Notes: generated from the letters alone by a model not told the origin. A DNA stretch of 64,000 nt from Elusimicrobiota bacterium (GCA_026388095.1 JAPLKL010000018.1:38388-102387); one strand, 5' to 3'; counted from the first letter of the stretch, positions 8,368 through 63,285 are shown. Made by a program: numbers and translations.

Positions 8368-10268
8368 AGCGCTGCCTCCAATATCTCCGCCAGGTCCTTG
8401 ACCGCGAGGTTCTCCAGGCTCTGGTCCTTCACGCCGGTCTCCAGCATGCTCAGGCAATACGGACAGGAGGTGGCGATGACTGAAGCCTTGGTCTGGTGGA
8501 GCTGGCGCACCCGCTCATGGTTGACGCGCGGGCCTTTCTCCTCCACCCAGAAGAGGCCTCCCCCGGCGCCGCAGCAGAAGCCGGTCTCGCGGCAACGCGA
8601 GGGCTCCACGGCCTGCGCGCCGCCCACCGCTGCCAGGAGTTCCCGCGCCGGGTCGTACACGCCGTTGGCGCGGCCCAGATAGCAAGAATCGTGGATAACG
8701 ACCCGCGTGTCGGGCCCGGACTTGGGCTTGAGCTTGCCCTGCAGGACCAGGCCCTGGAGCAGTCGGGTGTGGTGCAGGACCTCGAAGCTCCCGCCGAAGT
8801 CGGGGTATTCGTTCTTGAAGGTGTTGAAGCAGTGGGGGCAAGGGGTGAGGATCTTCTTGACCTTGAGCTCGTTGAGCAGGGCCGTGTTCTGCTCGACCAA
8901 GGACTGGCCCAAAGCCTCCTCGCCGAGGCGCCGCGCGGTCTCGCCGCAGCAGAGCTCCTCCTCTCCCAGCACGGCGAACGAGACTCCGGCCTTCTTGAGC
9001 AAGGAGACCAGGCTGCGGCTGACCTTGACGGCCCGGTCGTCGAGACTGGCCGCGCAGCCGAAGTAGAGCAGGTACTCGGCCGGAGCCTGGCGCCAGAGGG
9101 GCAGGTCCAGCCCCTTGGCCCACTCCGCGCGCTTGGCCGCGCCGAGGCCCCAGGGGTTGGAGTTGTTCTCCAGGCCCTTGAAAGCGCGCCTGACCTCGGC
9201 CGGGAAGCGCGCCTGCATGAGCACCTCGCTGCGCCGCAGGGAGTTGATGCGCTGCACGTGGGAGATGCTCACCGGGCAGGCCTGCTCGCAGGCCTGGCAG
9301 GTGGTGCAGGCCCAGAACTCCTCCGGCGTGACCGAGGCGGGCGCCAACTCCTCGGGCTCCCCGCCCTTGCCGTTGATGAGGCGGCCGGCCTCGCGCTTGA
9401 GGCAGTCCTTCTGCGCGGTGATGATCTCGCGCGGAGCGAGCTTCTTGCCCACGCCGTTGGCCGGGCAGGCCTCGTTGCAGCGGCCGCACTCGGTGCAGCT
9501 GTAAAGGTCCAGGCCGTCCTTCCCAGTGAGCTGATCGACATGGGGCGTGCCGAAGACGTCTACTTTCTCGTCGGCGAGGTCGAGCTTGGTGAGCCTGCCG
9601 CCGCGATGCAGCGGCCGTAGGTAAACGTTGAAGGCGGAGGTGAGGATGTGCATGTGCTTGCCCGTGGGCAGGTAGGCCAAGAAGACCAGGATGCCTAAGC
9701 AGTGGACCCAGAGAGCGGCGTGGCCGGCCGCGGCCGGGGCCTTGCCGCTCAAAGCGGCGGAGAAGAGCATGTCGCTGAGCATGAGGGTGAGGATCATGAG
9801 CAGGACGAAGAGGGCCTCGCCGGTGTTGCGCAGGCGCTTGACGCGCTGGATGTAGCGGCGGAAAAGGGCCAAGAGGATCATGAGCGTGACCGCGATGTTG
9901 GCGCCGTCCTTGACCACGCCGTAGGCCCGGCCGAGCAGCGCGTCGGGACCGAGGAAGGGGAGGTGGAACCCGAAGCCCCCGCCCAAAGCCATGCCGAAGA
10001 GGGTGAGGGCCCGCAGGAGCAAAGCGCAGAAGCCCCAGAATATGAGGGCGTGCATGAGGCCGGGCACGGGGTCCTGGAAGAGCTTCTTCTGGCCGAGGAA
10101 GATGGTCAGGAACTCCTGGATGCGCCGGGGGTGGTCCGCGACCGGATCAGGGACCGGGGCGAGAGCCTGGAGGAGCCTGGTCTTTCGGTAGACCGCGCGG
10201 CTGAACACTGCCAGAGAGATAGGAAGGGCGATGCCTACGACGACCGCGTCGGCTGCGTGCCAATGCAT
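8364..10268 (-). CDS. membrane-bound Fe-S oxidoreductase, HdrD/GlpC/DsrK-like (candidate ETF:quinone oxidoreductase of syntroph type)
   Basis: Hydrophobic multi-helix N-terminal third. Two ferredoxin motifs, [12 protein letters not shown] and [12 protein letters not shown]. Two CCG-type Cys-rich domains (LCCGET...CPHC and FCCGAGGG...CPYC). Confidence 0.85.
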
Positions 10269-10371
10269 TTACAGTCTCGTGCGCGCGAAGTGAAATATAG
10301 CATTTTCCCCCGTTCAGGGACGCTGAGAGAAGTCACGAAAGTCCCGGCTCGGGCCCACGCGTCCGGCACAC

Positions 10372-10436
10372 ATATATCGTTCGGGATATAATCGCTTCCA
10401 CCGCTGAAGGCGAATATATCGTTGAGGATATCATCG
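10372..10436. promoter_or_regulatory. two 23-nt direct repeats, each with an internal ATATC-N6-GATAT inverted repeat; candidate operator pair
   Basis: ATATATCGTTCGGGATATAATCG at 10372-10394 and ATATATCGTTGAGGATATCATCG at 10414-10436 (20 of 23 identical, starts 42 bp apart). They sit in the A/T-rich 376-bp gap upstream of the Fe-S oxidoreductase/icmF genes. Confidence 0.35.
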
Positions 10437-11886: not shown

Positions 11887-13235
11887 CGTGATACCTTCGC
11901 CTTGAAGTAGTCGTTGATCGGTCCGTAGGCGTGGAAGAAGCCGGTCAGCAGGACCTTATTGACGTCCTCGGGGCCCGCGGCCACGCCGTCCTTGACCAGG
12001 TTGAGCCCGATATCCCTGGAGCGCGCGCCGTAGCGCTTGGCCAGCTCCGCGCCCAAGGAGCTCATCTTGTCGAGCTTGCCGAAGAACTCGGCCAGCGCCT
12101 TATCCTTGGCGGGAAGGCGCGCGGCCGTCTTCCAGGCCAGGGCCGGCTCGGGCAGGGGCCCGAGCTTGGCGTCGCAGACGGCCTGGAACTCCGCGAGCGG
12201 GACGTAGCGCTTGGCCTCCGGGTCATAGACCCCGGTGCTGCGGCCCTTCTCATAGCGCAAAAAACCGTCCTTCTGGGAGCCGTCGTGGTTCTGTCCGCCC
12301 CGCACGCCTAGCGCCAGCAGCTTCTCCAGGAGCGGGCTCTTCAGGTCCTGGCCGGGCAGGCGCGGGTCCATGACCTTGAGGATGCACGCGCAGACGTCGA
12401 GGCCCACGTAGTCCACGAGCTGGAAGATGCCCATGGGCCGGACCAGGAAGTCCTGGCTCACCCGGTTGACGCAGTAGGCAGCCTGCACGAAGGGCATCTC
12501 TTTCGAGAGCCTCTCCAGCTCGGAGATGCCGTGGAGCATGTCGCGCATGAAGTGCCCGTTGCCGATGAAGCCGGCCTGGTCGCGGGAATGCACCACGGTC
12601 TTGCGCAGCTTCTTGGCCAAAGCCTCGGCGAAGGCCGCCACCTCGGGCAAAGCGGCCTGGCCGCGGATGAGCTCCACGAGCTTCTGCACCGCGGGCGGGT
12701 TGTAGAAATGGAAGCCCATGATGCGGCCCTGGAGCCCAGCCTTGGCGTCGAGCTCGGAGATCGGGATCGAGGAGGTGTTGGTGAAGACCCAGGGCTGCTT
12801 GGGGTTCTCCGCCGCGACCTGCCTGAGCAGCCTGAGCTTGAGGTCCAGGTCCTCGGTCGCGGCCTCGAAGACCACGCCGGCCTCGGCCGCGGCCGCCAGC
12901 ACCGTGACGGGCCGGACCACGTCGAGCACGTCCGTGACATACTGCTCGATGATGTCCCGGTTCTCCACCAGGTCGGCCCGGTCCGCGTAGGCCCGGCGCA
13001 GGCCCACGATGCGCTTCTCCGCGGTCTTGCGCACCTGCTCGCGCAGGTACTTCATGAGCCCGGACAGGGCCTTGGGGGACAGGTCCACCGCGTGCAGCAC
13101 GTAGCAGAGGGAGCGGTTCTCAGGCTGCAAAGCCAGGTCCGCCATCTCCTGGGCCATGAGCAGCACGATGCCGCTGCCCATCTTGCCCGCGGCGCCCAGC
13201 ACCGCCACTTTTTCGAGCCTTTCAGCGTAGTCCAT
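11883..13235 (-). CDS. 3-hydroxyacyl-CoA dehydrogenase (long form)
   Basis: N-terminal Rossmann motif VAVLGAAGKMGSGI, then FHFYNPP and the C-terminal 3HCDH-like region. ATGA overlap with the thiolase gene. Confidence 0.85.
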   Translation of the reverse strand: MDYAERLEKVAVLGAAGKMGSGIVLLMAQEMADLALQPENRSLCYVLHAVDLSPKALSGLMKYLREQVRKTAEKRIVGLRRAYADRADLVENRDIIEQYVTDVLDVVRPVTVLAAAAEAGVVFEAATEDLDLKLRLLRQVAAENPKQPWVFTNTSSIPISELDAKAGLQGRIMGFHFYNPPAVQKLVELIRGQAALPEVAAFAEALAKKLRKTVVHSRDQAGFIGNGHFMRDMLHGISELERLSKEMPFVQAAYCVNRVSQDFLVRPMGIFQLVDYVGLDVCACILKVMDPRLPGQDLKSPLLEKLLALGVRGGQNHDGSQKDGFLRYEKGRSTGVYDPEAKRYVPLAEFQAVCDAKLGPLPEPALAWKTAARLPAKDKALAEFFGKLDKMSSLGAELAKRYGARSRDIGLNLVKDGVAAGPEDVNKVLLTGFFHAYGPINDYFKAKVSR

Positions 13236-13238
13236 GGT

Positions 13239-14006
13239 TCACCATTTTGGTTGACGTTTTTCCAGGAAGGCCTTCATGCCCTCGGCCCCCTCGTTGCCGA
13301 ACAAGGAGCCGAAGTCCTCCGATTCCATCGCGCAGCCCGCGTCGAAGGAGCCCAGCAGTCCCTTGCGCACCAGGCGCTTGACCAGGCGCACGGCCTTGGG
13401 GCCCTTGGCCGCGATCTTCTTGGCCAGGCCCAGAGCCTCGGGCATGAGCTGCTCGGGCGCCACCACCTTCTGCACCAGACCCAGGCGCAGGGCGTCCTCC
13501 GCCCCGACCAGTTCGCCAGTGAGCAGGAGGTAAAGGGCGTTGCCCGCGCCCACCAGCCGAGGCAGGCGCTGGGTGCCGGCATAGCCGGGGGTGAGGCCCA
13601 GGTTCACTTCGGGCTGGCCGAACTTGGCGAAGGTGCTGGCGATGCGGAAGTCGCAGGCCATGGCCAGCTCGCAGCCGCCGCCCAAAGCGAAGCCGTTGAC
13701 GGCCGCGATCACGGGCACCAGAAACTCCTCCAGACTGCGGAAGGTGCGCTGCCCGACGCGCGAGAACTCGGAGCCGGCCCGGGAGTCCTTGTCGGCCATC
13801 TCCGCGATGTCCGCGCCCGCCACGAAGGCCTTGCCCGCGCCGGTGAGGACCAGCGCGCGCAGGCCGCTGTCCTGGGACAGGCCCGCCAGGAGGTCGTCGA
13901 GCTCCTGGAAGAAGCGCGTGTTGAGGGCGTTCATGGCCTGGGGCCGGCTGATGGTCACGACTGCGACGGCTTCCTGCTTCTCGACCTTGAGTATCTCGTA
14001 GTTCAT
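13239..14006 (-). CDS. enoyl-CoA hydratase (crotonase)
   Basis: C-terminal 255 aa of track ORF 13239..14747, from MNYEILKVEKQEAVAVVTISRPQAMNALN. Contains GAGKAFVAGADIAEM and NGFALGGGCELAMACD. The ATG at 14006 overlaps the etfA stop. Confidence 0.9.
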   Translation of the reverse strand: MNYEILKVEKQEAVAVVTISRPQAMNALNTRFFQELDDLLAGLSQDSGLRALVLTGAGKAFVAGADIAEMADKDSRAGSEFSRVGQRTFRSLEEFLVPVIAAVNGFALGGGCELAMACDFRIASTFAKFGQPEVNLGLTPGYAGTQRLPRLVGAGNALYLLLTGELVGAEDALRLGLVQKVVAPEQLMPEALGLAKKIAAKGPKAVRLVKRLVRKGLLGSFDAGCAMESEDFGSLFGNEGAEGMKAFLEKRQPKW

Positions 14007-14974
14007 TTTTTCAGAGCCTTGGCCAGCTCCTCCTTGAGTACGGGCAAGACCTTGAAGAGGTCGCCCACGATGCAGAAGTCCGCCTTCTCCATGATGGCTG
14101 CGTCCTTGTCCTTGTTGACGGCGATGATGAACTTGGAGGAGCCCATGCCCGCGAAATGCTGGATGGCTCCCGAGATGCCGCAGGCGATGTAGAGCACGGG
14201 CGAGACCACCTTGCCGGTCTGCCCCACCTGATGCTTGTAGGGGATCCAGCCGGCGTCCACGGCGGCGCGCGAGGCGCCCACGGCCCCGCGCAGGGTCCGG
14301 GCCAGGTCCTCGATGAGCTTGAAGCCCTCCGGCCCGCCCACGCCGCGGCCGCCGGACACGATGACCTCGGCCTCGGTCACATCCATGACGCCTTGCGCGG
14401 CCTGGATGGCCTTGACGACCTGGGCGCGGATGCGCATGTCCTCCGGCGAGATGGCGACCACTTCCGCGGCCTGCTCGCGCTCCGCCGCGGCCGCAAATAC
14501 GTTGGGCCTCAGCGAGACCACCTTGACCGGGGCGCAGAGCTCCGTCACGGCCAGCAGCTTGCTGGAATAGACCGGCCTCACCACGGTCAGAGCCGGGCTG
14601 TCCCACTGGATCGCGGTCACGTCCGTGGCCAGGGCGGCGTCGAGCCGGGCGGCCAGGCGCGCGGCCAGGTCCCGGCCCAAAGCCGTGGCGGACACGACGT
14701 ACAGGTCCGCCCCCAGCCGGCTGCCCGCCTCGGCGACCGCGCCGCAATAGGCCTCGCTGGAATAGGCGAGGAAGCTCTCCCCGGCCGCGGCGAAGACCTT
14801 CGTGAAGCCCAGGCGGCCCAGCCCCGCGGCCGCCGACGCGTCCGCGCCGCAGACCACCGCGGCCAGGGGGACCTGCAGCTTCTCCGCGAGCCTGAGGCCC
14901 ACCGCCGCGGCCTCCCGGCTGGCCTTGCGGACCGCGCCGCCGGCCGTCTCCACCCAGACGATTATGCCTGCCAT
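14003..14974 (-). CDS. etfA: electron transfer flavoprotein alpha subunit
   Basis: C-terminal FAD-binding signature VGQTGKVVSPVLYIACGISGAIQHFAGM...IIAVNKD. Confidence 0.9.
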   Translation of the reverse strand: MAGIIVWVETAGGAVRKASREAAAVGLRLAEKLQVPLAAVVCGADASAAAGLGRLGFTKVFAAAGESFLAYSSEAYCGAVAEAGSRLGADLYVVSATALGRDLAARLAARLDAALATDVTAIQWDSPALTVVRPVYSSKLLAVTELCAPVKVVSLRPNVFAAAAEREQAAEVVAISPEDMRIRAQVVKAIQAAQGVMDVTEAEVIVSGGRGVGGPEGFKLIEDLARTLRGAVGASRAAVDAGWIPYKHQVGQTGKVVSPVLYIACGISGAIQHFAGMGSSKFIIAVNKDKDAAIMEKADFCIVGDLFKVLPVLKEELAKALKK

Positions 14975-51301: not shown

Positions 51302-51526
51302 TCAGCCGACCCGGGCGAGCCGCCTGCGCAGCCGGCCGCGCAGGCCGGCGGAGAGCGCCGCGCGGGGCTGGCGCTTGAGCACCCCCACGGTCTTGCGCAG
51401 GGTGTTGATGAAGGCCACGCAGGGCTTGCAGCCCTTCATGTGCGAGTCGATGTGCCGACAGATGGCGGGGTCGAGGTCGCGGTCGAGGTAGTCGGAGAGG
51501 TGCCTCAGCATCTCCCGGCACTTCAT
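51302..51526 (-). CDS. short soluble zinc-binding (ZAS, HxxxCxxC) anti-sigma factor
   Basis: 74 aa from MKCREMLRHLSDYLD. HMKGCKPC motif and no TM segment. ATGA overlap with the ECF sigma stop. Confidence 0.7.
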   Translation of the reverse strand: MKCREMLRHLSDYLDRDLDPAICRHIDSHMKGCKPCVAFINTLRKTVGVLKRQPRAALSAGLRGRLRRRLARVG

Positions 51527-52116
51527 CGCGCCACCGCCTTGTCCAGACGGTCCCGCAGGAACAGCCGCCCGCGGTGCAGGCGGGATTTGACCGCGGCCAC
51601 GGAGAGCTTCATGACCTTGGCCGTCTCTTCGGCCGAAAGCCCCTCTATGTCGCGCAGGACCACGACCAGGCGGTAGTCCACCGGAAGGTCCGCCAAAGCG
51701 GCCTCGACCGCCTGGCGCAGGGCTTTCTTGCGGGACAGCTCTTCCGGGCCGTCGGACCAATCCCGGAATTGGTCGCCGGAGGACGGGTCCGGCTCGTCGT
51801 CATGATGATGAGGATGGTCGAGTATAGGGACCACGGGTTCCGCTCGCTTCTTGCGCAAGCGCATCCAGCAGAGGTTCGAGGCGATGCGGTAGAGCCAGGT
51901 GCCCAGGTTGGAGTCCTCGCGGAAAAGCGAGAGCTTCTTGAACGCGGTCAGGAAGGTCTCCTGGTAGACGTCCTCGGCCTCGGCGGGCATGCCGGCGCAA
52001 ACCTTGTGGGCCAGGTTGAAGATCCTGTCCTCGTAGCGGGAGACCAAGGCGGAGAACGCCTTTCCGTCACCCTTCTTGCTCCTGGCGATGAGCTCCGCCT
52101 CGGGCTCCACGCTCAC
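51523..52116 (-). CDS. ECF-type RNA polymerase sigma factor
   Basis: Region 2 (FSALVSRYEDRIFNLAHKV...DVYQETFLTAF...GTWLYRIASNLCWMRLRK). Region 4 (DYRLVVVLRDIEGLSAEETAKVMKLSVAAVKSRLHRGR). A His/Asp/Pro-rich linker lies between them. GTG start overlaps the kinase stop. Confidence 0.85.
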   Translation of the reverse strand: MSVEPEAELIARSKKGDGKAFSALVSRYEDRIFNLAHKVCAGMPAEAEDVYQETFLTAFKKLSLFREDSNLGTWLYRIASNLCWMRLRKKRAEPVVPILDHPHHHDDEPDPSSGDQFRDWSDGPEELSRKKALRQAVEAALADLPVDYRLVVVLRDIEGLSAEETAKVMKLSVAAVKSRLHRGRLFLRDRLDKAVAR

Positions 52117-53246
52117 TCCTGCGGCGCCGCGGTCTTGAGCCGGAAAGAGAAGGTGGCGCCCTGGCCCGGCTCGCTCTGCACCCAGATCATCGTGCCGTGG
52201 ATGTTGGCGATCTCCCGGGCGATGGCCAGCCCGAGCCCGGTGCCCTGCTCGTGCACCGCCACGGCCGAGTTGGCCCTGAAGTACTCGTCGAAGATCTTGC
52301 CGATCAGATGCTTCTCGATGCCGATGCCGTGGTCCTGGACGGATATGTCCACTTGGCCCGAATCGGTCGCGGCCGCGGCCGCGACCCGGATCTCGGAGCC
52401 GTCCGGAGAATAGTGGATGGCGTTCTCGAGCAAGGTCGAGAGCAGGATCAAAATCTGGTTGCGGTTGCAGCTCACCCCCACCGGCGGCAGGGGCGCCACG
52501 GCGATCCGGATCTTCCGGCTGGCGGCCAGGTCCGTGAAGTGCCGGACGGCCGAGGAGATGATGCCCTCCAGCGGGGCCTCCTCCATCTTGATGTTCTCCC
52601 GGACCACGGACTTGAGATTCGCCAATTCCAGCATCTCCTTGATGGCCTCGCTGAGCAGCATGCAGCGCTGCTGCATCTTCAAGACGATCTCCCGGGTGCG
52701 GGGCTCGATGCGGCCCACGTAGCCTTCGAGGATCAGGTCGATGTAGCTTTGGATGGCGGCGAAGGGCGCCTTGAGCTGATGGGTGGAGTGCATCAGATAG
52801 CGCGTCTTCTCGTTGTTGATCTGCTGGAGCGTCGCGTTGGCCTGCGCCAATTCCCGCGTGCGCTCCTGCACGCGGCGGTCCAATTCCAGGTTGTAGGCGC
52901 TCAGCGTGTCGGAGACGCCTTGCTGGAGGTCGAGGAGGTGGAAGATGATCTTCGCGTCCTCGGAGCCGATCACCCGCGCGTGCGGATGCTTCAAGGCCAG
53001 GATCCTGTCGTAGACCGCCTGGCTCCCGGTGGCCTCGAAGATCAGGCCCACCTTCTCGTCCCGGCAGACCGCCTCCAGGTCCTGGTCCTGCGCGATGCCG
53101 TGCTCCCGCGCGGCCTTCATGCCCGGGGCGTCGGGGTCGACGTCGCAGACGTGCCGGATGACGATGTCCGGCATCTTGAGCAAGGTCTCCAGGATGGCGG
53201 TCCCGCCTTTGCCGGCGCCCACCACGGCGATCACATCCTTCTTCAT
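52113..53246 (-). CDS. cytoplasmic histidine kinase with an N-terminal Rossmann-like domain
   Basis: MKKDVIAVVGAGKGGTAILETLL (GxGxxG), coiled coil, H-box HSTHQLKAPF, and N/G boxes (LLENAIHYSP, DHGIGI, GTGLGLAI). Alternative start at 53276. Confidence 0.8.
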   Translation of the reverse strand: MKKDVIAVVGAGKGGTAILETLLKMPDIVIRHVCDVDPDAPGMKAAREHGIAQDQDLEAVCRDEKVGLIFEATGSQAVYDRILALKHPHARVIGSEDAKIIFHLLDLQQGVSDTLSAYNLELDRRVQERTRELAQANATLQQINNEKTRYLMHSTHQLKAPFAAIQSYIDLILEGYVGRIEPRTREIVLKMQQRCMLLSEAIKEMLELANLKSVVRENIKMEEAPLEGIISSAVRHFTDLAASRKIRIAVAPLPPVGVSCNRNQILILLSTLLENAIHYSPDGSEIRVAAAAATDSGQVDISVQDHGIGIEKHLIGKIFDEYFRANSAVAVHEQGTGLGLAIAREIANIHGTMIWVQSEPGQGATFSFRLKTAAPQE

Positions 53247-53336
53247 GGCGCGATGTCCCTCCGAAAAAGCTACCATAAATACCGAAAAATTGCACAATAT
53301 TCCTTGCCGGCCGGGGCATAAGCCGGCGGAGGGCTC

Positions 53337-53750
53337 ATGAAAAAGATCTACATCGTGGATGACGACCGGAACATCGTCGAATCCATACGCATCGTCCTGG
53401 AGGCTCACGGCTACGCGGTGGCGGCCCAATACGACGAGAAGGACGTGGTCGCCAACCTCGCCGCCCAGAAGGCCGACGCCGTGATCCTCGACGTCATGTT
53501 CCCCGAGAACCCCGACGCCGGCTTCGAGATCGCCCGCCAGCTCCGCGGCGACCAGCGCACCGCGAAGGTCCCCATCCTCATGCTCTCGGCCATCAACGAG
53601 AAAGGCGTCTACGCCGGCACGTTCTCCAACAAGGACCGCGACGACTCCTGGCTGCCCATCAACCAATTCATCGAGAAGCCGATCAAGCCCAAGCAGTTGC
53701 TGCAGATCCTGGAGGCGGCCCTGAAGGGGACGCCGCAGCCGAAGGCTTGA
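53337..53750 (+). CDS. single-domain response regulator (CheY-like receiver)
   Basis: KIYIVDDD...AVILDVMFP...ILMLSA...EKPI. Divergent from the kinase gene. Confidence 0.85.
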   Translation: MKKIYIVDDDRNIVESIRIVLEAHGYAVAAQYDEKDVVANLAAQKADAVILDVMFPENPDAGFEIARQLRGDQRTAKVPILMLSAINEKGVYAGTFSNKDRDDSWLPINQFIEKPIKPKQLLQILEAALKGTPQPKA

Positions 53751-55563: not shown

Positions 55564-55747
55564 TGTCTAAGCGGGCCGGTCGAGGCTCTTCGTCGTCGAG
55601 GTCCTGTCTGCATCCATGCTGGCCTTAAGTATCACAGACATCTCCGCTCTTGTCAAGGCGATGACGCCTGGAGTCATGCCGCTCCGCCTTCGCCGGTTGT
55701 CCCCCTCCGAAGAAAAATGTAGAATCTACCGTCGCTAATCCGCTACC

Positions 55748-55788
55748 GGTTGGGTGGCTGAGCGGTCAAAAGCAACGGTCTGTAAAAC
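55748..55788 (+). repeat. 41-nt exact copy of the 5' half of tRNA-Tyr (acceptor stem through anticodon loop); putative att remnant
   Basis: GGTTGGGTGGCTGAGCGGTCAAAAGCAACGGTCTGTAAAAC is identical to 63199-63239. Identity ends 2 nt after the anticodon loop. Confidence 0.85.
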
Positions 55789-55981
55789 TCCCTGGCCAGA
55801 TTTCCCCAATCACGTTTTTCCCTTTCTAAATCCTGTATTTTTCAACAACAGGTCAGTGAGGCTCAGTCCCCAAAAGGTGTGCCAATTGGTGTCAAAAGGG
55901 GCCAATGTGGACGCAGAGTGGACACTTTTTGGACACCAGTCCTCCCCGTAGACCGCGTCCGCATTCGTCATCATATGCCGC

Positions 55982-56380
55982 ATGTGGGAAGCGTATCGCG
56001 AGGTGGTCCAGCAGTATCCAAGGCTGCCTCTGGCCGCGGAGCGGCGGCTAATCGCCCTGGCCCAAAGAGGCGTAAAGGCGAGCCAAGATGAACTCGTCTT
56101 GCGGCATGTCGGCTTCGTGATTTGGCGGCTCTGCAAAAAGGTCTTCCGCCCGCACCTGCAGCGCCATGGAGAGGACATGCTCTCTGCGGCGATCCCGTTG
56201 CTGTATCAGAAGGTCTGGACCTACAACCTGAATTACCGGGACAGAGACGGGAACAAAAGGCCTGTCCGATTTTCGTCCTACATCTGGAAGCGCATTGATG
56301 GATTCGCTATTGATTTCTTGAGGAGCGAGAAGAGAACAGCAGTGCTCAATGAGGCGTGTCTTGCCGATGAATCCCGTTGA
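55982..56380 (+). CDS. sigma-70 region-2-only protein (no region 4)
   Basis: LAAERRLIALAQRG...ELVLRHVGFVIWRLCKKV...DMLSAAIPLLYQKV...FSSYIWKRIDGFAIDFLR parallels sigma regions 1.2 to 2.4. Paralogue at 59064. Confidence 0.6.
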   Translation: MWEAYREVVQQYPRLPLAAERRLIALAQRGVKASQDELVLRHVGFVIWRLCKKVFRPHLQRHGEDMLSAAIPLLYQKVWTYNLNYRDRDGNKRPVRFSSYIWKRIDGFAIDFLRSEKRTAVLNEACLADESR

Positions 56381-56464
56381 TTTCAGGGTTCTTCCGCCCG
56401 GCGAGGACCTTGAGCCTTGAACTGACAGACCAGAGCGCCTGTCATCTCTGCCGATGCCATTGAG

Positions 56465-57055
56465 TTATTTCCCCCCCATCTCGGAATCCGATCCCGGCAT
56501 GCACCCCCCATCGTGGTGCGCGGCATTGTCCGCCAGCCGGTTGAGCTTCACGCCGCAATGGCGGCATTCGTACTCCGGTGCGGACTGCTCAGCAGCAGCG
56601 AGTTCCTCGATGGTCCGCGGCGTGAAGTCCCACACGTCCACTCCAACGTTGATGATCCACCCGAGTCGCAGCCACTTCTCATGGACGTGTCCACATAGGA
56701 GCTTTTGCTGAGTCCGCATCGGCTTGTGCTGAAGCAGCCAGCCGTTCCATTCGAGATTTTGGTGAACCTCGCTGAAGCCCGCTTCGAGCATGCGCTGCGG
56801 GCTGCGATCATGGCTGCCGATTATGAGGACCTTCCTGGCTCCGTTGAGTCGGCCGACGATAGCTGACCAGTCTGAAGGCCTTCCCATGGCAAAATCGCCC
56901 AGGTGATAGACCGCGTCCTCCGGCCTGACCACGGCGTTCCATCGGGCGATCATCTCTCGGTCCATCTCCTCCGCGGAACTGAAGGGCCGCCCGCAGTACT
57001 TGATGATGTTGGCGTGGTTGAAGTGCGTGTCGCTGGTGAAGAAGACCTTGGCCAT
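56465..57055 (-). CDS. calcineurin-like metallophosphoesterase with a C-terminal Cys/His tail
   Basis: SDTHFNH, GDF, GSHD and GHVH motifs. Tail CRHCGVKLN...HHDGGC. Lies 9 nt downstream of abiEii. Confidence 0.8.
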   Translation of the reverse strand: MAKVFFTSDTHFNHANIIKYCGRPFSSAEEMDREMIARWNAVVRPEDAVYHLGDFAMGRPSDWSAIVGRLNGARKVLIIGSHDRSPQRMLEAGFSEVHQNLEWNGWLLQHKPMRTQQKLLCGHVHEKWLRLGWIINVGVDVWDFTPRTIEELAAAEQSAPEYECRHCGVKLNRLADNAAHHDGGCMPGSDSEMGGK

Positions 57056-57064
57056 GTGCGTCGC

Positions 57065-57973
57065 CTATAACCCCAACTTGCTCTTGAGTTCGAACAGTTG
57101 GTCCCGGTGCTTCGTCTTATTCATCTTCCGGATATTCTGCAGCTTCCATTGGATGGCCGGCATGTTTTCGATGCCCGGCAGACCCATAAGATCCCAGTCC
57201 GGCTGGCCTTCCTTGATCGAGACAAGGAATTTCCTCTCCGCGTCCGTGAGGTCGGCCCGCAAACGGACGATAAGCCTTTCACGGGTTTCAACCAACTCCT
57301 CGTACGTCACGGGCTCATCCGTCATTCCAAGGAACTCCGAATCATAGACGGCTCTCATGTCCTTGCGACTGGGATCGATGAGCTCGTGCATGGGGCGGTC
57401 GTGGCTCGCCAGGTAGACCACGAAGCCCTTCCTGATTCCCGCTGTGAGCCCTTCTCCGGCCAAGAGGAGCTTGACGTCGAAGAGGTCCCTCGGGTGCTGC
57501 CTGTCCAAAGCGGCGCAAATCTTTCCCCCATACAGGTCGGAGTCCGCCGCTATCCGGGCGAGAACCGCAAGGCCGAACTTGTTCTCGACCTTCGCCGACA
57601 GCGCACGCTCGACCGGGGGTTCGATGGTCCCCCGGATCACCGTGTTGGGTTCGATCTTGACTTGCGCGCCGTCACCCCGCACGACCAGCTTGAACAAATG
57701 GCCGGCGCTCAGGCTCTCATGGATCGCGGCGCCCGGGATGGCCTTGCCGATGCCCGCTTTGATTCTCTGGAGGGCCTCCCCGATTCCGCCGAGAGCTTCA
57801 TCTCGCGGGCTGATCGGCACATAGGTCAGATCGATGTCCACCGAGATCCGCGGCATGTCGCGCCGGAAGAAATTGATCGCGCTGCCGCCTTTGAGCGCGA
57901 AGCATGTCTCCTTGGCCACGTGCGGGAGGATGCGCAGCATCAGCCGCGCCTGTTCAAGGTACGGACTTTTCAT
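57065..57973 (-). CDS. AbiEii/DUF1814 nucleotidyltransferase toxin (type IV TA)
   Basis: FALKGGSAINFF...RISVDIDLTY NTase core. ATGA overlap with the upstream antitoxin gene. Confidence 0.8.
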   Translation of the reverse strand: MKSPYLEQARLMLRILPHVAKETCFALKGGSAINFFRRDMPRISVDIDLTYVPISPRDEALGGIGEALQRIKAGIGKAIPGAAIHESLSAGHLFKLVVRGDGAQVKIEPNTVIRGTIEPPVERALSAKVENKFGLAVLARIAADSDLYGGKICAALDRQHPRDLFDVKLLLAGEGLTAGIRKGFVVYLASHDRPMHELIDPSRKDMRAVYDSEFLGMTDEPVTYEELVETRERLIVRLRADLTDAERKFLVSIKEGQPDWDLMGLPGIENMPAIQWKLQNIRKMNKTKHRDQLFELKSKLGL

Positions 57974-58764
57974 GTCGCAGTCCTCTCCTGTTCGCGGCGC
58001 CGGAACGGCACGGTTATCAGGTACTTCGGGTCCAAGTGGCCGTGCTTAGCGAGCATACGCTTGCCTTTCCCCAGGTTGACTCTCTTGAGGTCGAGCTTAG
58101 CCGCCCAGGAATGCTCGCACAACTCGGCCAACAGGAGGAAGAGCCGCTTCGCCTTCACCGAGCGGCAGGCTTCCAACAATCCCTGCACCAACTGGGGCCT
58201 CAATGTGGTCAGGCCTTCCATCAAGAGCTTCGCCTCGTCGAATGACTCCTCCCGAGGCACCTGGTCGAGGAACTCGAGTATGGCCCGCTCCGGAGCGGAC
58301 AGCAGTATCGAGTAGCCGCTCATGTCCTTGGGAGTCAATCCTTCTTCCGGGCCGTTTTGGAACAGGTTCGTCGCGGTATGCCGGACTTTGACACCCCAAT
58401 CGCGCCTCGCAAACCACGCCGGAAGCCTTCGCCTGGGCGGGCCAAAGAGAGAAACGACCTCTCCCTGGCCCACGGGCAGATAGTGGCCATATCCTTGAAG
58501 CTGCAATGCCGTCTTGCCTCCGCCGTGGATGGGCAGGCCGAGTTGCTTCTGCACCGCATAAAGAGCGCCGGTCCACTCCACGCTTTCGTTGAGCCGCGCG
58601 TAGGCACCGCGGCCTATGCGGCGAAGCCAATGAGAGCGGCAGTAGCGATCCGCCAGTTGCCGCGATATCCCCTGTTTCTCAAGCCATGATTGAACGGCTA
58701 CAGCCCCCTTGGGCCATGTACTGAGCAGCTCTGGAAGTTTGCCGTGCTTTTCTGGATTTTTCAT
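57970..58764 (-). CDS. AbiEi-family antitoxin / transcriptional regulator
   Basis: N-terminal wHTH-like segment (VAVQSWLEKQGISRQLADRYCRSHWLRRIGRGAY). The size and position upstream of AbiEii are typical. Confidence 0.7.
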   Translation of the reverse strand: MKNPEKHGKLPELLSTWPKGAVAVQSWLEKQGISRQLADRYCRSHWLRRIGRGAYARLNESVEWTGALYAVQKQLGLPIHGGGKTALQLQGYGHYLPVGQGEVVSLFGPPRRRLPAWFARRDWGVKVRHTATNLFQNGPEEGLTPKDMSGYSILLSAPERAILEFLDQVPREESFDEAKLLMEGLTTLRPQLVQGLLEACRSVKAKRLFLLLAELCEHSWAAKLDLKRVNLGKGKRMLAKHGHLDPKYLITVPFRRREQERTAT

Positions 58765-58789
58765 GGTTAGTTTATATTTGGTCTATTGC

Positions 58790-58880
58790 GACAATCCAAG
58801 ATATACAAATAGCATTAAATGTAAACCTGCTCGATAGATTTAGTTTATTAAGAACATCATTTGACAATCCAAGATTGTCA
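58790..58880. promoter_or_regulatory. repeated GACAATCCAAGAT boxes in the abiEi promoter region (candidate operators)
   Basis: Box 1 at 58790-58802. Box 2 at 58863-58875 lies inside the perfect palindrome TGACAAT-CCAAG-ATTGTCA (58862-58880). On the minus strand TTGGAT, a 17-nt spacer and TATAAA precede the ATG at 58764. Confidence 0.4.
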
Positions 58881-59063
58881 TAAAGAGATATTATTAAACT
58901 TAGCAGATGATTATGAATCTGTCAAGAGCGCGGTCTTGCTCGATTGCGGACGGCGTCCCCGTCTGCGTCGAGTTCCCTTTATGCCGACCAGGCCGGAATG
59001 ACTTTGGCGCCGTCCGGGATGATCGCCAGGTGGCCGTGAAGCAGGCGAGCTGCTCGCTCGTAT

Positions 59064-59414
59064 TTGCTCAATAGATGGTCGGAGCCGGGCTTCTCCAGTT
59101 TGGAGATGTACCTCTGTTTGACGCATAGCTTGGCTGTTGACGGCTTCGTCATCTGGCGGCTCTGCGAGAGGGTCTTCCACCCACACCTGGAGCGCCATGG
59201 AGAAGACATGCTCTCGGCGACCATCCCGGTGCTCTATCAGAAGGTCGGGACCTACAACCTGAACTATCGGGACAGGGCCGGAAACAAACGGCCCGTCAGG
59301 TTCTCTTCCTATGTTTGGAAACGGATCGATGGGCTCGCTATCGATTTTCTGAGGCATGAGAGCCGCATGAGAGGACGGCTCAAAGAAGATTGCCTGGCCG
59401 ACAACGACGATTAG
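59064..59414 (+). CDS. sigma-70 region-2-only protein, second copy; N terminus diverged or truncated
   Basis: About 90 aa align with the 55982 gene (GFVIWRLCERVFHPHLERHGEDMLSATIPVLYQKVGTYNLNYRDRAGNKRPVRFSSYVWKRIDGLAIDFLR). Most nucleotide differences are synonymous. The start codon is uncertain (TTG at 59064 or ATG at 59106). Confidence 0.5.
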   Translation: MLNRWSEPGFSSLEMYLCLTHSLAVDGFVIWRLCERVFHPHLERHGEDMLSATIPVLYQKVGTYNLNYRDRAGNKRPVRFSSYVWKRIDGLAIDFLRHESRMRGRLKEDCLADNDD

Positions 59415-59417
59415 GGC

Positions 59418-60254
59418 TTATGCGGCTCGGGCTCGCTCGTATCCTCTTGCGAAGGCCTTAAGGAGTTCGAGCGTCGCTGCTCTCTTCTTCTTGTCCGCAT
59501 CCTCATCGAGCCCCCGGCCCGCCGCCGCGTCCATGAACGGTGAGTAGAGGTCTTGCGATTCTTTGAGGAACTTGCTGACTGCCTCCCCAGCCTCCTTGGA
59601 AGCCAGTTGCCCGACCTCTAGACCGAGCAGCGCAGCCCCAGCAGCCGCATAGTCGATGGCCTCGCCGCCCAGCCTGGCCGCGGCATCGAAGCGCCGCGGG
59701 TCTTCGGCCCCTGAGGCATAGTGCTCAAGCCAGTAGCAGATATCGACCGCGTCGTTGCGGTAGCGGACATCCTGTCGTTCTCGACGGTCTAGGAAGGCGA
59801 TGATTTTGAGCAGCATGAAGCCTGGGACCGAGATGATGGGCACCACCGGGGCTCCCTTCCTCACCTTGGCGCTGGCCGCCTCGCAGACTTCCTTGAAGCC
59901 GATGACGTTCATCTCGAATTCCGAGTCAGGCCAGCGGAACTTGCCGGCAGGAGCAACCCCTTCCCCATACGGTATGAGGTCCACCATGACCTCGCCCCTG
60001 AACAGCCGGTGCTCTATCTTGGGATGCCGCTCGAAATCCTTGGCGATGAGAGCGGCGCGGATCTTGCGGAAGGATTCCCAGTCTGGGACAGGCAAGGCGA
60101 AGTCAGCGTCGTTGGTCCTTCGAAATGCCGGGAAGTCGGCGCCGACTTCAGGACTTAGCTCCGAGATGAGCGCGCCGATAAGGACGCTTTTGACCCCAAG
60201 GCCTTCAGCGGTCTGATGGACATCCAGGACGGCCTTCTTGAGCTTGCTATCCAA
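59418..60254 (-). CDS. nucleotidyltransferase-fold protein (AbiEii-like toxin candidate)
   Basis: KSVLIGALISEL...FRRTNDADFALPV resembles an hG[GS]...DxD NTase core. Overlaps the upstream regulator-like gene by 8 nt. Confidence 0.45.
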   Translation of the reverse strand: MDSKLKKAVLDVHQTAEGLGVKSVLIGALISELSPEVGADFPAFRRTNDADFALPVPDWESFRKIRAALIAKDFERHPKIEHRLFRGEVMVDLIPYGEGVAPAGKFRWPDSEFEMNVIGFKEVCEAASAKVRKGAPVVPIISVPGFMLLKIIAFLDRRERQDVRYRNDAVDICYWLEHYASGAEDPRRFDAAARLGGEAIDYAAAGAALLGLEVGQLASKEAGEAVSKFLKESQDLYSPFMDAAAGRGLDEDADKKKRAATLELLKAFARGYERARAA

Positions 60255-61302
60255 GATTTCCCTCCGGCCCGAGCCACTTATCGTAAATCATCCGCGCGGT
60301 CTCTACTTCCCGCGGCCCCCCCTCATTCAGCAGGTCTGCATAGACCAAGAGGGGCGTGGCAAGAGGGAATTCCTGGGCTGCTTGCTTGGCTATAGCGGTA
60401 TCGGCAAAGAGTCTGAGCAAGGTCAGGTTGCCGTTTTTGTCGGGCAACAAGGGCTCCATTTTTTTCAAGTGCTGCTCTGCCTGCTCATCTACGAACAATG
60501 TGACATTGTCCGGCTCAAGATGTCCGGTCAACTGCTTTGCAGCCATGCCGCCAGTGACGGCCCAGCGCGCCTGCGTGTTCATCAGGACTTGCTGGGTAGC
60601 CCCCAAGATCACCTTCGGTTGGAATCTTCTATGCCGATACCGCCCGATCAGGCATGCCGGCCGCAGCTTGAGGGCATAGCCGCGGACAAAGGTCTCCACT
60701 AGTTCCTTTGCATCGCCGAGGCGCCGCTCCCGGCCCGGCCCCGGCAGCAGCAATCGCGCAAGCATCAGTTCCCGCATGACTTTGTGGGCCGTAGCTAGAG
60801 CGACATTGGCCTGCTCCGCGATGACGCGAAGGGGCTCCTTGAGGACCTGGGGCTGAGTCAGCAGCAAGTGACAAATCTTCAGCCCGCCAGCTTCCACGAT
60901 CCTGCCCGGCTCGGGAGCAAGGCGAGCCTCCGGGCGTTTGCCTCTGATATCGATAAGGAGCTGCGGAGGATGCCGGAAATAGGCATTTCCGAGCGTGTCT
61001 GCGAAATCGACACCGGCCTCCCGAAGCTCCTGGGCAACCGCTTCCGGAATCCATTTGGCGAGAATCACGATTCCGGCGTTCTTGCCGGCATAGGCGCGTG
61101 CCTGGAGCACGGCGTTGAGCGCCTGGGCCCTGGTGGCGATGTTCGTCTTGCATTCGCCGACCAACTCTATCCGCGGCTGGGTTGGGAGGACCAGCTTTAC
61201 GTCCGGTCCCCTTTGTCCAGTCGGCTGGATATGGGCGATGACCTGCTTGCCTAGCAAATGTCTGATATTTTCCAGGCACCCATGGATTATTTCGTTCGTC
61301 AT
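60247..61302 (-). CDS. AbiEi-like regulator candidate with an N-terminal PD-(D/E)xK-like segment and a central wHTH
   Basis: GPDVKLVL...IELVGECK (D...ExK pattern). LRVIAEQANVALATAHKVMRELMLARLL (wHTH-like). GGAG lies 5 nt upstream of the ATG at 61302. Alternative start at 61317. Confidence 0.45.
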   Translation of the reverse strand: MTNEIIHGCLENIRHLLGKQVIAHIQPTGQRGPDVKLVLPTQPRIELVGECKTNIATRAQALNAVLQARAYAGKNAGIVILAKWIPEAVAQELREAGVDFADTLGNAYFRHPPQLLIDIRGKRPEARLAPEPGRIVEAGGLKICHLLLTQPQVLKEPLRVIAEQANVALATAHKVMRELMLARLLLPGPGRERRLGDAKELVETFVRGYALKLRPACLIGRYRHRRFQPKVILGATQQVLMNTQARWAVTGGMAAKQLTGHLEPDNVTLFVDEQAEQHLKKMEPLLPDKNGNLTLLRLFADTAIAKQAAQEFPLATPLLVYADLLNEGGPREVETARMIYDKWLGPEGNLG

Positions 61303-61646
61303 ATCAGCTCCGTTCATTGTCAATGAACAGCGTAATGCATCGAACACACTTTGTCAAGGCCCTAAGCCAGCCGGGGAAACCCCACAGAACGGCGGCAGCC
61401 GCATCAAGGAACGGCCAAAGCTTGATCCTCGCCGTCCACCTGAGTTCTTGCCCCTTATCCCGCCGGTTGCCCCAATGCTACACTGTGGGCTGCAGCGCGG
61501 TATATTCCGTTATCTCTGAGGCTTCAAGGCCAGAATAGAAATTGAAGTCCAGAGTTCAGCCAAGCCTGTCGCGGCGAGTTAATCAAGCCCTAAGGCGACC
61601 CAAAACGCGACGGCCGCATCATAAGGGGCATATTGCCCACGACAAC

Positions 61647-62105
61647 TCACTCTAAACCGCGCGACAAACACGCATCCTCCATGAACTTGGCCTCAGCAGT
61701 CGCGGCGACCACGCCGCTCTGGGCTATCTCGGCTTTGAGCGCGTGCAGAGGCGGGAACGACTTGACGACCCATGCCTTGACGGTAGCAGGCTTCCCGCAA
61801 CGCACGGGAGCTACATACTTGAGGTTCAACTCGGCGGTCAGGGCGGCCAAGCCCTGGGAAAAGAGGCAGTTGGTCATGGCACTGTCGATGACCGAAGCGA
61901 TGACGCCGCCGTGAAGATAGCCCTTGTAGCCCTCGAATCGGAAGTGGCAGAAGAATTCGGATGAGACCATCCCCACCCGCTCGACCTCAAACTTCAGCTT
62001 GAACCCTACAGGGTTCTTGGTCCCGCAGAGCAGGCAGGTGTTATGAAGCGATTCCTGCGTCTTTGCGTGCAGCTTTCGCAGTCTCTCGTTATCGCCTAAT
62101 GGCAT
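61647..62105 (-). CDS. PaaI-family hotdog-fold thioesterase
   Basis: HGGVIASVIDSAM core. Start at MPLGDNE (62105) overlaps the upstream gene by 10 nt. Confidence 0.7.
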   Translation of the reverse strand: MPLGDNERLRKLHAKTQESLHNTCLLCGTKNPVGFKLKFEVERVGMVSSEFFCHFRFEGYKGYLHGGVIASVIDSAMTNCLFSQGLAALTAELNLKYVAPVRCGKPATVKAWVVKSFPPLHALKAEIAQSGVVAATAEAKFMEDACLSRGLE

Positions 62106-62812
62106 CCGCCCTTGCCATGGTGGCCGCAAGCCATCGTCGCATCAGCTTCCTTGAGCTTTCCCGCGTTGATGGCCGCGACGGTCGCTTCGACCGTGGGCTC
62201 GGTGCTGATATAGACCTTGATCCCGGCGGCGTTGAGCCCGCGGATGGCCCCCATGCCGATGCCGCCCACGGCCACGGCGTCCGGCTTGGATTCGCCCACG
62301 GCCTTGAGCGGATTGCACATGCCGTGCTCGTGCACGACATTGCCGTTGTCGATGATCTCGCATTTCAACGTCTTGCTGTCGCAGACTGTGAAATAGGGCG
62401 CGCTTCCGAAATGCCCGTAGACTTCGGCCTTGAGCCCTTCCTTGGTACCCGTCGGTATGCAGATTCTCATCGTGTTCTCCTTGCGAGTCTTCCGATTTCG
62501 GAAAGCCAGAGGCCCCCGTTGCGTGAGCCGTACCGGCCCCCCTTCTATCCTCAATGCTTTCCCGTGCGCCAACGCGTCGGCGATCTTCCGGTGGGCCGAA
62601 GCCAGGATGAGCCCCACGGTCTGCCGGGACACGTTCATCCTCCGCGCAGCATCGGCCTGCTGCAGACCGCGCAGGTCCACCAGGCGGATGGCCTCGAGTT
62701 CGTCGAGCTTCAGCCGGACTTCGTCCAGGTCGGTCAGCGGGATGCCCCGCGGCTTGAAGTAGCAGGCCTGGGGTCCGCCGTCGATGTTGCGGCATTTGAG
62801 AGGTCTTGGCAT
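62096..62812 (-). CDS. DUF134 (sigma region-4-like HTH) fused to a NifB/NifX-type FeMo-cofactor-binding-like domain
   Basis: MPRPLKCRNI...FKPRGIPL...ELEAIRLVDLRGLQQADAARRMNVSRQTVGLILASAHRKIADAL, then in frame MRICIPTGTKEGLKAEVYGHFGSAPYFTV...VAVGGIGMGAIRGLNAAGIKVY. Confidence 0.7.
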   Translation of the reverse strand: MPRPLKCRNIDGGPQACYFKPRGIPLTDLDEVRLKLDELEAIRLVDLRGLQQADAARRMNVSRQTVGLILASAHRKIADALAHGKALRIEGGPVRLTQRGPLAFRNRKTRKENTMRICIPTGTKEGLKAEVYGHFGSAPYFTVCDSKTLKCEIIDNGNVVHEHGMCNPLKAVGESKPDAVAVGGIGMGAIRGLNAAGIKVYISTEPTVEATVAAINAGKLKEADATMACGHHGKGGCH

Positions 62813-63198
62813 TATTGGCCTATGCCAATTATAGAGGATATCCAGTCAGCCGTCAACCTGGAACCGCCAGGGTGGAGCGCTGATCTTCCCCCTGATTCCC
62901 GACCAAGCTGAATTGGAGAATCCGGTGTCCTTGGATAATGCCACGGTCTTTGCGCCTAGGAGCGGGCGCAAGGAGGCAGGGCCGAGCATGCAGTTCAAGT
63001 TGCGCCGCCAATGATCCCCAACCGTTTCTCGTCGACGATTTGCGGCAGCGCTCCTATTCTGTGTATCATATCCACATTGGGCCCGTCGGCGATCGAGTGC
63101 CCGAAGTGGATACTTTTTGGACACTCGGCCAAAAATGTGAATTTTTGGCAAATTCGTAGTTGTTAAATTGTTCTTTAATTAGCAGTAGAAGTTCACAC

Positions 63199-63285
63199 GG
63201 TTGGGTGGCTGAGCGGTCAAAAGCAACGGTCTGTAAAACCGTCGGGCTACGCCCTACGCAGGTTCGAATCCTGCCCCAACCACCA
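63199..63285 (+). tRNA. tRNA-Tyr (GTA anticodon), class II with long variable arm, CCA encoded
   Basis: Hand-folded. Acceptor GGTTGGG/CCCAACC, D stem GCT/AGC, anticodon stem ACGGT/ACCGT with loop CTGTAAA, variable arm GGGCTACGCCC, T arm GCAGG-TTCGAAT-CCTGC, then A-CCA. Confidence 0.9.

Follow-up and report, generated by a model that had tools for sequence, protein, structure and literature searches.

In AbiE toxin–antitoxin (TA) systems, AbiEi neutralises the toxicity of AbiEii and autoregulates the operon, and the systems act in phage abortive infection. Such modules are compared here with two other kinds of known element. Genomic islands in tRNA genes usually duplicate the 3′ part of the tRNA, and duplication of the 5′ half is unusual. 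Complete sigma factors of groups 1 to 4 all possess a sigma-4 domain, which recognises the −35 element and binds the beta flap. The phage-encoded gp55 of T4 is a late promoter specificity factor, with a sliding-clamp-binding tail and a co-activator, gp33. It contains sigma region 2 only, uses acidic residues to bind the beta′ clamp helices of RNA polymerase, and recognises a −10-like element although it has no sigma-4 (PMC7892883), while in the split sigma factor SigO-RsoA the functions of sigma-2 and of sigma-4 are found on separate polypeptides (PMC7826278). Here I describe a locus where these themes meet, in a 64,000-nucleotide stretch of DNA from an Elusimicrobiota bacterium (GCA_026388095.1 JAPLKL010000018.1:38388-102387; hereafter the window, from whose first letter all window positions are counted). 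It contains two AbiE-like gene pairs, each facing a short gene that resembles region 2 of sigma factors, hereafter referred to as SIG2.

The initial annotation of the window had described this as a twice-repeated architecture, and had proposed that a conserved association of the sigma-like gene with AbiE would define a three-component system. Translation of the open reading frames (ORFs) recovered every gene that it had named, and there are indeed two facing modules, but one of the sigma-like genes is intact while the other is truncated, and both lie within a mosaic tRNA island. I propose, with a probability of roughly 55%, that the locus is a mosaic, integrase-less island in a tRNA-Tyr gene, carrying two independent AbiE pairs and an autonomous, island-borne SIG2 gene, with no three-gene unit.

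SIG2 is a family of sigma-2-only proteins

SIG2 copy 1 (55982–56380, plus strand) is an intact gene encoding a protein of 132 amino acids. Its direct profile matches are weak (Sigma70_r2, E = 0.011, below the cut-off; TIGR02937, 0.0014; a SigF profile from the PDB, E = 0.21), no Pfam or NCBIfam model passes for the family, and no PADLOC model matches it. The AlphaFold model derived from the SIG2 family alignment has a pLDDT (predicted local distance difference test) of 91, and nearly all of its top 50 PDB matches in Foldseek are to the sigma-2 domain of sigma factors; one example is sigma-S (5IPL_F), with a TM (template modelling) score of 0.62 and a root-mean-square deviation (rmsd) of 2.0 Å over 109 columns. 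When 1.84 billion representative proteins were searched exhaustively by profile, only 164 hits were obtained, almost all of which belong to the SIG2 family or are fragments of it, followed by a tail of full-length sigma-70-family proteins possessing Sigma70_r2, r3 and r4. These full-length proteins align to SIG2 residues 1–121 in hhalign with 99.5% probability (E = 2.9e-22).

Two stretches are nearly invariant in the family: a G-E-D patch, which aligns to sigma region 2.2, and an F-S-S-Y-I-W-K-R-I-D-G segment, whose F-S-S-Y-I-W-K-R portion aligns to regions 2.3/2.4. No Sigma70_r4 match was found in the SIG2 proteins (125–160 amino acids), which end some 10–40 residues past region 2.4 in a C-terminal tail that is variable and of low confidence in the model. 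Because the weak Pfam and NCBIfam hits, the structural matches and the alignment to full-length sigma factors all point to the same domain, copy 1 is read as a sigma-70 descendant reduced to its sigma-2 domain (regions 1.2–2.4), and the absence of region 4 is confirmed. The initial annotation had suggested profile searches as a way to reveal a match to a known but unrelated family; what they reveal instead is a conserved sigma-region-2 family.

More than 300 SIG2 homologues were identified, of approximately 125–160 amino acids, with a minimum identity of 42%, a median of 58% and a maximum of 85%. They are found in metagenome-assembled genomes (MAGs) of Elusimicrobiota and Omnitrophota, and in a few MAGs labelled otherwise; the nearest relatives of both the window SIG2 and the NTase (nucleotidyltransferase) of the second AbiE-like pair are in Elusimicrobia MAGs. 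No SIG2 gene was found in 50,697 phage records, 72,556 plasmids or the 2.9 million viral contigs of IMG/VR, and a phage or plasmid origin was rejected on these zero hits. Nothing relevant was found in the literature on AbiE with sigma factors, nor on sigma-2-only proteins on islands.

For the analysis of neighbourhoods, 96 loci were collected (designated L followed by a number) and dereplicated to 89 SIG2 genes, 87 of which are outside the window. As neighbouring genes were identified with a simple ORF caller and local iterative hidden Markov models (HMMs), the counts reported below are estimates, and the true numbers are probably higher. Flanking sequence is shorter than 3 kb on one side for 35 of the 89 genes; 52 of the 87 non-window genes have full flanks.

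These neighbourhoods have the character of genomic islands. Genes for recombinases, primases and relaxases are 5.8 times denser in the 3 kb next to SIG2 than at a distance of 3–10 kb (p = 5.5e-5), and tRNA genes 1.7 times denser over the same intervals (p = 0.07). Large serine recombinases, tyrosine integrases, DUF2924, Replic_Relax, AEP-TOTE primase-helicases and an rve transposase recur near SIG2, and direct repeats of tRNA fragments bracket the SIG2 segments at L018, L035 and L082. Between the window SIG2 and its closest relative, DNA similarity (88.6%) is limited to the gene itself, and both flanks differ. At least six loci contain tandem, truncated, frameshifted or chimeric SIG2 copies. 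In L042, residues 17–71 of the second copy (12600–13274) are identical to those of the first (10001–10426) and this 5′ part of SIG2 is then fused to an AlbA_2/Schlafen-like gene, which suggests that recombination occurs within SIG2 genes. Taken together, SIG2 is, as far as its sequences and their surroundings can tell, a real conserved family typical of genomic islands, and not a dedicated third part of AbiE.

Several further features of these loci were observed. Tandem SIG2 copies lie 1–7 kb apart at L042, L015, L053, L067 and L080. At L018 (11178–13706), L035 (3167–5614) and L032 (4211–6592), the gene beside SIG2 encodes an AEP-TOTE primase with a superfamily 2 helicase, of 800–840 amino acids, and the islands concerned are tRNA-bounded and have no canonical integrase. 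DUF134 and Nitro_FeMo-Co (NifX-like) genes are located 5′ of SIG2 at L036, L044 and L053, in places together with methyltransferase, DsrE and ferredoxin genes, and ZnuA/ABC-3 metal-uptake operons flank SIG2 in about six Omnitrophota loci.

The upstream regions of SIG2 genes are also informative. A leader of about 30 nt is conserved between the window SIG2 and L018, and one SIG2 clade has TGTATAAT approximately 10 nt 5′ of the ATG. Since short upstream leaders are conserved in this manner, it is suggested that SIG2 is transcribed from its own short promoter and leader. In the clade formed by L061, L067, L074, L077 and L091, a conserved extended −10 element, TGTATAATAT, is found about 10 nt before the ATG, which would imply a near-leaderless mRNA. 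A mosaic structure of copy 1 was also considered, by comparison with the L001 gene; the only signal was a mild dip in identity at nucleotides 85–126.

Association with AbiE and Fic genes

The co-occurrence of SIG2 with AbiE-like genes, the check proposed in the initial annotation, does recur beyond the window: for 11 of the 87 other SIG2 genes (13%), and for 5 of the 52 with full flanks, an AbiE-like gene lies no more than 3 kb away. About 87% of SIG2 genes, on the other hand, have none. Fic/DOC genes, also of toxin type, are the commoner neighbour, found within the same distance of 21 of the 87 genes (24%), and of 18 of the 52 with full flanks. Both are locally enriched, comparing the first 3 kb to the interval from 3 to 10 kb, by 3.6-fold for AbiE-type NTases (p = 0.018) and 4.6-fold for Fic (p = 3e-4); neither value exceeds the 5.8-fold enrichment of the mobility genes.

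The AbiE-like neighbours belong to several subfamilies, and their orientation relative to SIG2 varies: the genes converge in the window and L001, diverge in L019, and are co-directional in L025, L035, L071 and L047, where SIG2 lies downstream of abiEii. AbiE-associated SIG2 genes are spread over approximately seven SIG2 clades. Among immediate neighbours identified with Pfam, Fic is found downstream in 8 of 75 cases and upstream in 3 of 77, and AbiEii upstream in 3 of 77; the others are heterogeneous, and include ZnuABC, clusters of DUF134, Nitro_FeMo-Co and ferredoxin genes, and other housekeeping genes. No conserved small partner gene was found downstream of SIG2 beyond three small lineage-specific groups. 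The Fic neighbours are only about 28% identical to each other (median) while SIG2 is about 58% identical, a contrast that could reflect repeated recruitment, or equally a cargo hot-spot beside a conserved island gene.

The association was also examined from the AbiE side. Full-length homologues of the AbiEii of the first module (47–52% identity) are encoded on 312 proteobacterial plasmids, in a plasmid collection that contains no SIG2. An iterative local HMM places the NTase of the second module in a cluster of NTP_transf_8 or weakly AbiEii-like NTases, whose genes always follow AbiEi_2 genes; its relatives (53–76% identity) have all kept the AbiEi_2 partner, and three of their four independent contexts have no SIG2, one being among housekeeping genes. 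Because most SIG2 genes have no AbiE neighbour, because the orientation varies, and because both AbiE types are widespread without SIG2, a dedicated three-component AbiE system is not supported, and the conserved association envisaged in the initial annotation does not hold.

The second SIG2 copy is a truncated remnant

The initial annotation had described the second sigma-like gene as a paralogue of the first, and had assigned regions 1.2 to 2.4 to both; copy 2 is not a complete paralogue. Its open frame reaches back to 59064, but through unrelated sequence, and the match to the family profile covers positions 41–125 only, corresponding to 59138–59414 (plus strand). The N-terminal stretch of about 42 residues (region 1.2/2.1), many of them nearly invariant in the family, is missing, and in the predicted model this removes helices 1 and 2 and half of helix 3. 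The assignment of regions 1.2 to 2.4 to both genes thus stands for copy 1 and fails for copy 2 at its N-terminal end, while the absence of region 4 is common to the two. A search of 58700–59200 in all frames for a remnant of the missing N-terminus gave chance-level hits only. The adjoining segment 58979–59137 (minus strand) was considered as the 3′ end of an XRE-type gene, as if one deletion had run through two divergent genes, and this was rejected, as it has no Pfam hit and no locus protein matched it.

The two copies share an ungapped repeat of 224 nt with 82% identity (56107–56330 and 59138–59361). Over 76 codons I counted 29 synonymous and 16 non-synonymous differences, which agrees with the mostly synonymous divergence reported earlier, and which corresponds to a dS (synonymous divergence) of about 1.06, a dN (non-synonymous divergence) of 0.096 and a dN/dS of 0.09. 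Copy 1 is closer to a gene on an unrelated metagenome contig (dS 0.42) than to copy 2. Since the divergence of the two copies is near saturation, and since copy 1 has a closer counterpart in another metagenome, they are old xenologues that were brought together, and not the products of a local duplication. The low dN/dS ratio is real, as the initial annotation had implied in placing both copies under purifying selection, but this signal for the most part predates their co-residence, and is no demonstration of a present function of copy 2. The truncation, in the sequence and in the model, points to copy 2 being a non-functional remnant whose frame is open by chance.

A mosaic island in a tRNA-Tyr gene

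Over approximately 55–63 kb of the window the GC content is 0.58–0.60, against 0.65–0.72 around it. This region is bracketed by a 42-nt direct repeat, 100% identical, that corresponds to the tRNA-Tyr 5′ half, as far as the anticodon loop. Its left copy (55747–55788, plus strand) marks the left island border. The right copy (63198–63239), at the right border, comprises the first 41 nt of an intact tRNA-Tyr(GTA) gene (63199–63285, plus strand) and one base upstream. Because of the low GC content and the exact tRNA repeat that brackets it, I conclude that 55789–63239 is a mosaic island of about 7.45 kb in the anticodon loop of tRNA-Tyr, and that it holds all of the genes discussed here. A good match to a sigma-70-type promoter (TTGTCC-17-TAGAAT; 55697–55725, plus strand) is located 5′ of the displaced tRNA half, and is probably the native tRNA promoter.

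ORF translation and Pfam searches identified no recombinase or integrase between 55789 and 63198. Four freshwater DNA metagenomes contained no empty-site or excision joints, and the locus is unchanged there. A 20-nt motif is located near both island ends, with the consensus form AGTGGA(C/T)ACTTTTTGGACAC: its left copy, AGTGGACACTTTTTGGACAC (55917–55936, plus strand), is about 45 nt 5′ of the SIG2 copy 1 start codon, and the second, 95% identical (63105–63124, plus strand), is 75 nt 5′ of tRNA-Tyr. It is a possible arm-type protein-binding site. Were the island circularised, the two motifs would flank the crossover, in the manner of arm-type recombinase or recombination directionality factor sites. 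L018 also involves tRNA-Tyr, and also shows duplication of its 5′ half (6160–6198 and 13929–14015), bracketing the SIG2 gene.

Two other genes are found within the island borders, both on the minus strand and identified with Pfam: a 4HBT thioesterase gene (61647–62129) and a DUF134/Nitro_FeMo-Co fusion gene (62096–62812). Just outside the island (51523–52100, minus strand, and 53337–53750, plus strand), translations revealed an ECF-type (extracytoplasmic function) sigma factor at the C-terminal end of a long ORF (51523–53319), a histidine-kinase-like ORF and a response-regulator receiver gene. By their sequences, these look like ordinary chromosomal regulators.

Two AbiE-class pairs, probably self-sufficient

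The first module (56465–58764, minus strand) is that of a typical AbiE system, extended by one gene, in agreement with the initial annotation. Its abiEi gene (57970–58764), the antitoxin/regulator, possesses both AbiEi_3_N (PF17194, 6e-32, 110 bits for a cut-off of 26) and AbiEi_3 (PF11459, 6.6e-49), and matches the PADLOC AbiEi model (2.6e-86). It overlaps by 4 nt (57970–57973) with abiEii (57065–57973), which encodes the nucleotidyltransferase toxin (PF08843, 8e-32, 111.5 bits for a cut-off of 22.5; PADLOC PDLC02290, 3e-117), with the pol-beta-type NTase motifs GGS...SVDIDL in its translation. A gene for a PdeM-like calcineurin-type phosphoesterase (56465–57055; TIGR04123, 2.4e-9; phrog_547, 3.6e-45) starts 9 nt downstream of abiEii, with which it is probably co-transcribed.

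Upstream of abiEi lies an AT-rich promoter region with two promoter-like sites (58790–58917, minus strand). It contains a perfect palindrome of 17 nt, GACAATCCAAGATTGTC (58863–58879), and a half-site, GACAATCCAAG (58790–58800). As the published autoregulation by AbiEi uses inverted repeats in the promoter, these elements are probably the AbiEi operator, by analogy.

Metallophosphoesterase genes trail AbiE-like pairs at three unrelated loci, the window, L006 (9941–10642) and L098 (3849–4706). Homology of the window phosphoesterase to the Metallophos gene beside the L006 pair was considered, and the comparison was not significant; the three proteins have no detectable mutual homology. It may be that AbiE-class modules recurrently carry a phosphoesterase as an accessory.

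Contigs from a soil metatranscriptome (run X8) are about 90–97% identical (mostly about 95–97%) to 56480–59112, and diverge past 59112. They span the phosphoesterase gene, abiEii, abiEi and the upstream region, and are uninformative on SIG2. A variant of the first module therefore exists in another environment without the adjoining truncated SIG2, and may be transcribed there. In the lake metatranscriptomes from the same samples, no contig covers the locus.

The second module (59418–61347, minus strand) is more divergent. Its regulator, an antitoxin candidate with an AbiEi_2 domain (60247–61347; PF09952, 7e-18, 65.8 bits for a cut-off of 21), likely starts at 61302, as annotated initially, giving a protein of 351 amino acids, equal in length to its homologues. 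The toxin candidate (59418–60254) is a divergent AbiEii/NTP_transf_8-like NTase, with a DxD motif in TNDADFAL. The AbiE-like character of this module is thus clear for the regulator, whereas the NTase matches AbiEii weakly (PF08843, 3.9e-4, 20.9 bits for a cut-off of 22.5; PADLOC AbiEii, 9e-4). The two genes overlap by 8 nt, and the NTase stop (59418) is 3 nt from that of SIG2 copy 2 (59414), the spacing noted from the start. Each of the two pairs has an internal gene overlap and its own upstream region, and both appear to be ordinary, independent and self-sufficient members of the type IV TA/abortive-infection class.

Origin, possible function and alternative explanations

The proposed history of this island is as follows. 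Two SIG2-bearing cargo units would have been joined by accretion or recombination, after which copy 2 lost its 5′ end. With regard to function, the homology to sigma region 2 and to T4 gp55 predicts that SIG2 would dock on the beta′ clamp helices of RNA polymerase, and it might also contact −10-like DNA; an autonomous, island-borne factor binding RNA polymerase is thus its most likely nature. Without sigma-4, it would then either compete with the sigma factors of the host, or give island genes a minimal promoter-specificity factor.

Several observations weigh against the proposal of a mosaic island with an autonomous SIG2 gene. The binding of SIG2 to RNA polymerase is a prediction from homology, and the mobility of the island is deduced from its borders in a locus with no integrase, and with no empty-site or excised form in the four metagenomes. 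In addition, the 3-kb surroundings of 30 of the 87 non-window SIG2 genes (34%), and of 22 of the 52 with full flanks (42%), contain a Fic or AbiE-like gene, which is high for pure co-residence. SIG2 follows abiEii-like genes by 11–39 nt in L025, L035 and L071, and its stop overlaps the Fic start in five loci, a tight packing that looks operonic. Finally, in the SIG2 clade to which the window belongs, AbiE-like genes lie near four of the five members.

These same proportions, together with the local enrichment of both toxin types, agree with a facultative partnership, which I regard as a less likely possibility. Here, SIG2 would have been recruited repeatedly beside nucleotide-transferring toxins, namely AbiEii NTases and class II Fic AMPylases, which it might switch on in stress or infection, or tie to RNA polymerase; the window would then contain one working sigma-2/AbiE unit and one decayed unit. 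Operon-like spacing in at least nine loci, the diversity of the Fic partners, as expected from repeated independent juxtaposition, and the spread of AbiE-associated genes over SIG2 clades are all in its favour. Yet most SIG2 genes have neither type of neighbour, the order and orientation of the genes vary, and mobility genes are equally or more enriched, as expected from the sharing of small islands. Furthermore, both AbiE families and the Fic_N-type Fic proteins occur abundantly where SIG2 is lacking and are self-contained, and in the window the SIG2 copies are convergent with both AbiE operons and not co-transcribed with them. That SIG2 is an undescribed, horizontally spreading, sigma-2-only module that binds RNA polymerase, and a facultative third component coupling AbiEii and Fic toxins to transcription, seems rather unlikely.

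A role as a stand-alone conflict gene of defence islands is quite improbable. SIG2 would in this case block phage sigma factors or appropriators at the beta′ clamp helices, or serve as a host-takeover factor. Its neighbours do include Mrr, GIY-YIG, M78 peptidase-HTH (helix-turn-helix), DpnI, Fic, methyltransferases, AAA_14/DUF4143 and the AEP-TOTE primase-helicase, and its very high conservation across phyla is as expected for contact with a conserved host machine. The lack of a PADLOC match and of any copy in the phage and viral collections searched argue against such a role, as do the many copies beside housekeeping operons (ZnuABC, DUF134/FeMo-co clusters, SpoVG, IspE).

That SIG2 represents half of a split sigma factor of the SigO-RsoA type, with a sigma-4 partner nearby or elsewhere in the genome, is very improbable: there is a precedent for such factors (PMC7826278), the gene of the closest relative (P0004, 85% identity) is followed by an overlapping 78-codon HTH_17 gene, and at L039 an HTH protein with a weak Sigma70_r4_2 match is encoded directly downstream of SIG2, but no conserved partner is found up- or downstream across the 89 SIG2 genes, HTH_17 occurs in the P0004 lineage only, and in the window each copy runs up against the 3′ end of a convergent gene, with no intervening HTH gene.

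I therefore return to the mosaic island with two independent AbiE pairs and an autonomous SIG2. The convergent placement of a gene beside TA modules is no ground for reading the three as one system. The interest of the locus lies in SIG2 itself, a compact and very strongly conserved truncation of a sigma factor, confined to islands of poorly studied phyla, with local enrichment beside genes of the Fic and AbiE types. Should SIG2 bind the beta′ clamp helices, one would have in it a cellular, island-borne counterpart of T4 gp55, or a natural sigma competitor, and such binding would open a simple way to study how mobile islands exploit or restrain transcription in their hosts. When genomes of Elusimicrobiota and Omnitrophota are annotated, ORFs of about 130 amino acids labelled as sigma factors should be considered a distinct entity.

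Comparison with known systems

The first module resembles described AbiE systems in having both defining domains above Pfam thresholds, the 4-nt overlap, the NTase motifs and a palindromic candidate operator, and differs by the extra phosphoesterase gene at its 3′ end. In the second, the AbiEi_2 regulator gene overlaps the NTase gene and this pairing is kept in relatives, whereas the NTase is under the AbiEii gathering cut-off. Neither window pair needs, or consistently has, a sigma-like gene. The island shares with other tRNA-integrated islands its flanking tRNA-segment repeat, deviating GC content, TA/defence cargo and tandem, mosaic structure, but duplicates the 5′ half of the tRNA and has no internal integrase.

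Compared to SigO-RsoA, SIG2 has no conserved sigma-4 partner gene beside it. With T4 gp55 it shares a sigma-2-type domain without sigma-4; in contrast to this phage protein, SIG2 is absent from the phage records and viral contigs searched, its tail is variable, and neither a clamp-binding tail nor a gp33-like partner has been identified for it. From the sigma-70 family it is set apart by the loss of regions 3 and 4, for a total of 125–160 amino acids, by an insertion of eight residues between the region 2.2- and 2.3-like helices, and by forming a tight, separate family, from which an exhaustive search reaches canonical sigma factors only at its tail end. Its sigma-2 domain nonetheless superimposes on those of sigma-S (5IPL_F) and sigma-E region 2 (2MAP/4LUP), with query-normalised TM scores of 0.55–0.62 and rmsd values of 2–4 Å over about 110 columns, and shares with the family both profile homology over regions 1.2–2.4 and a conserved aromatic and basic segment similar to regions 2.3–2.4.

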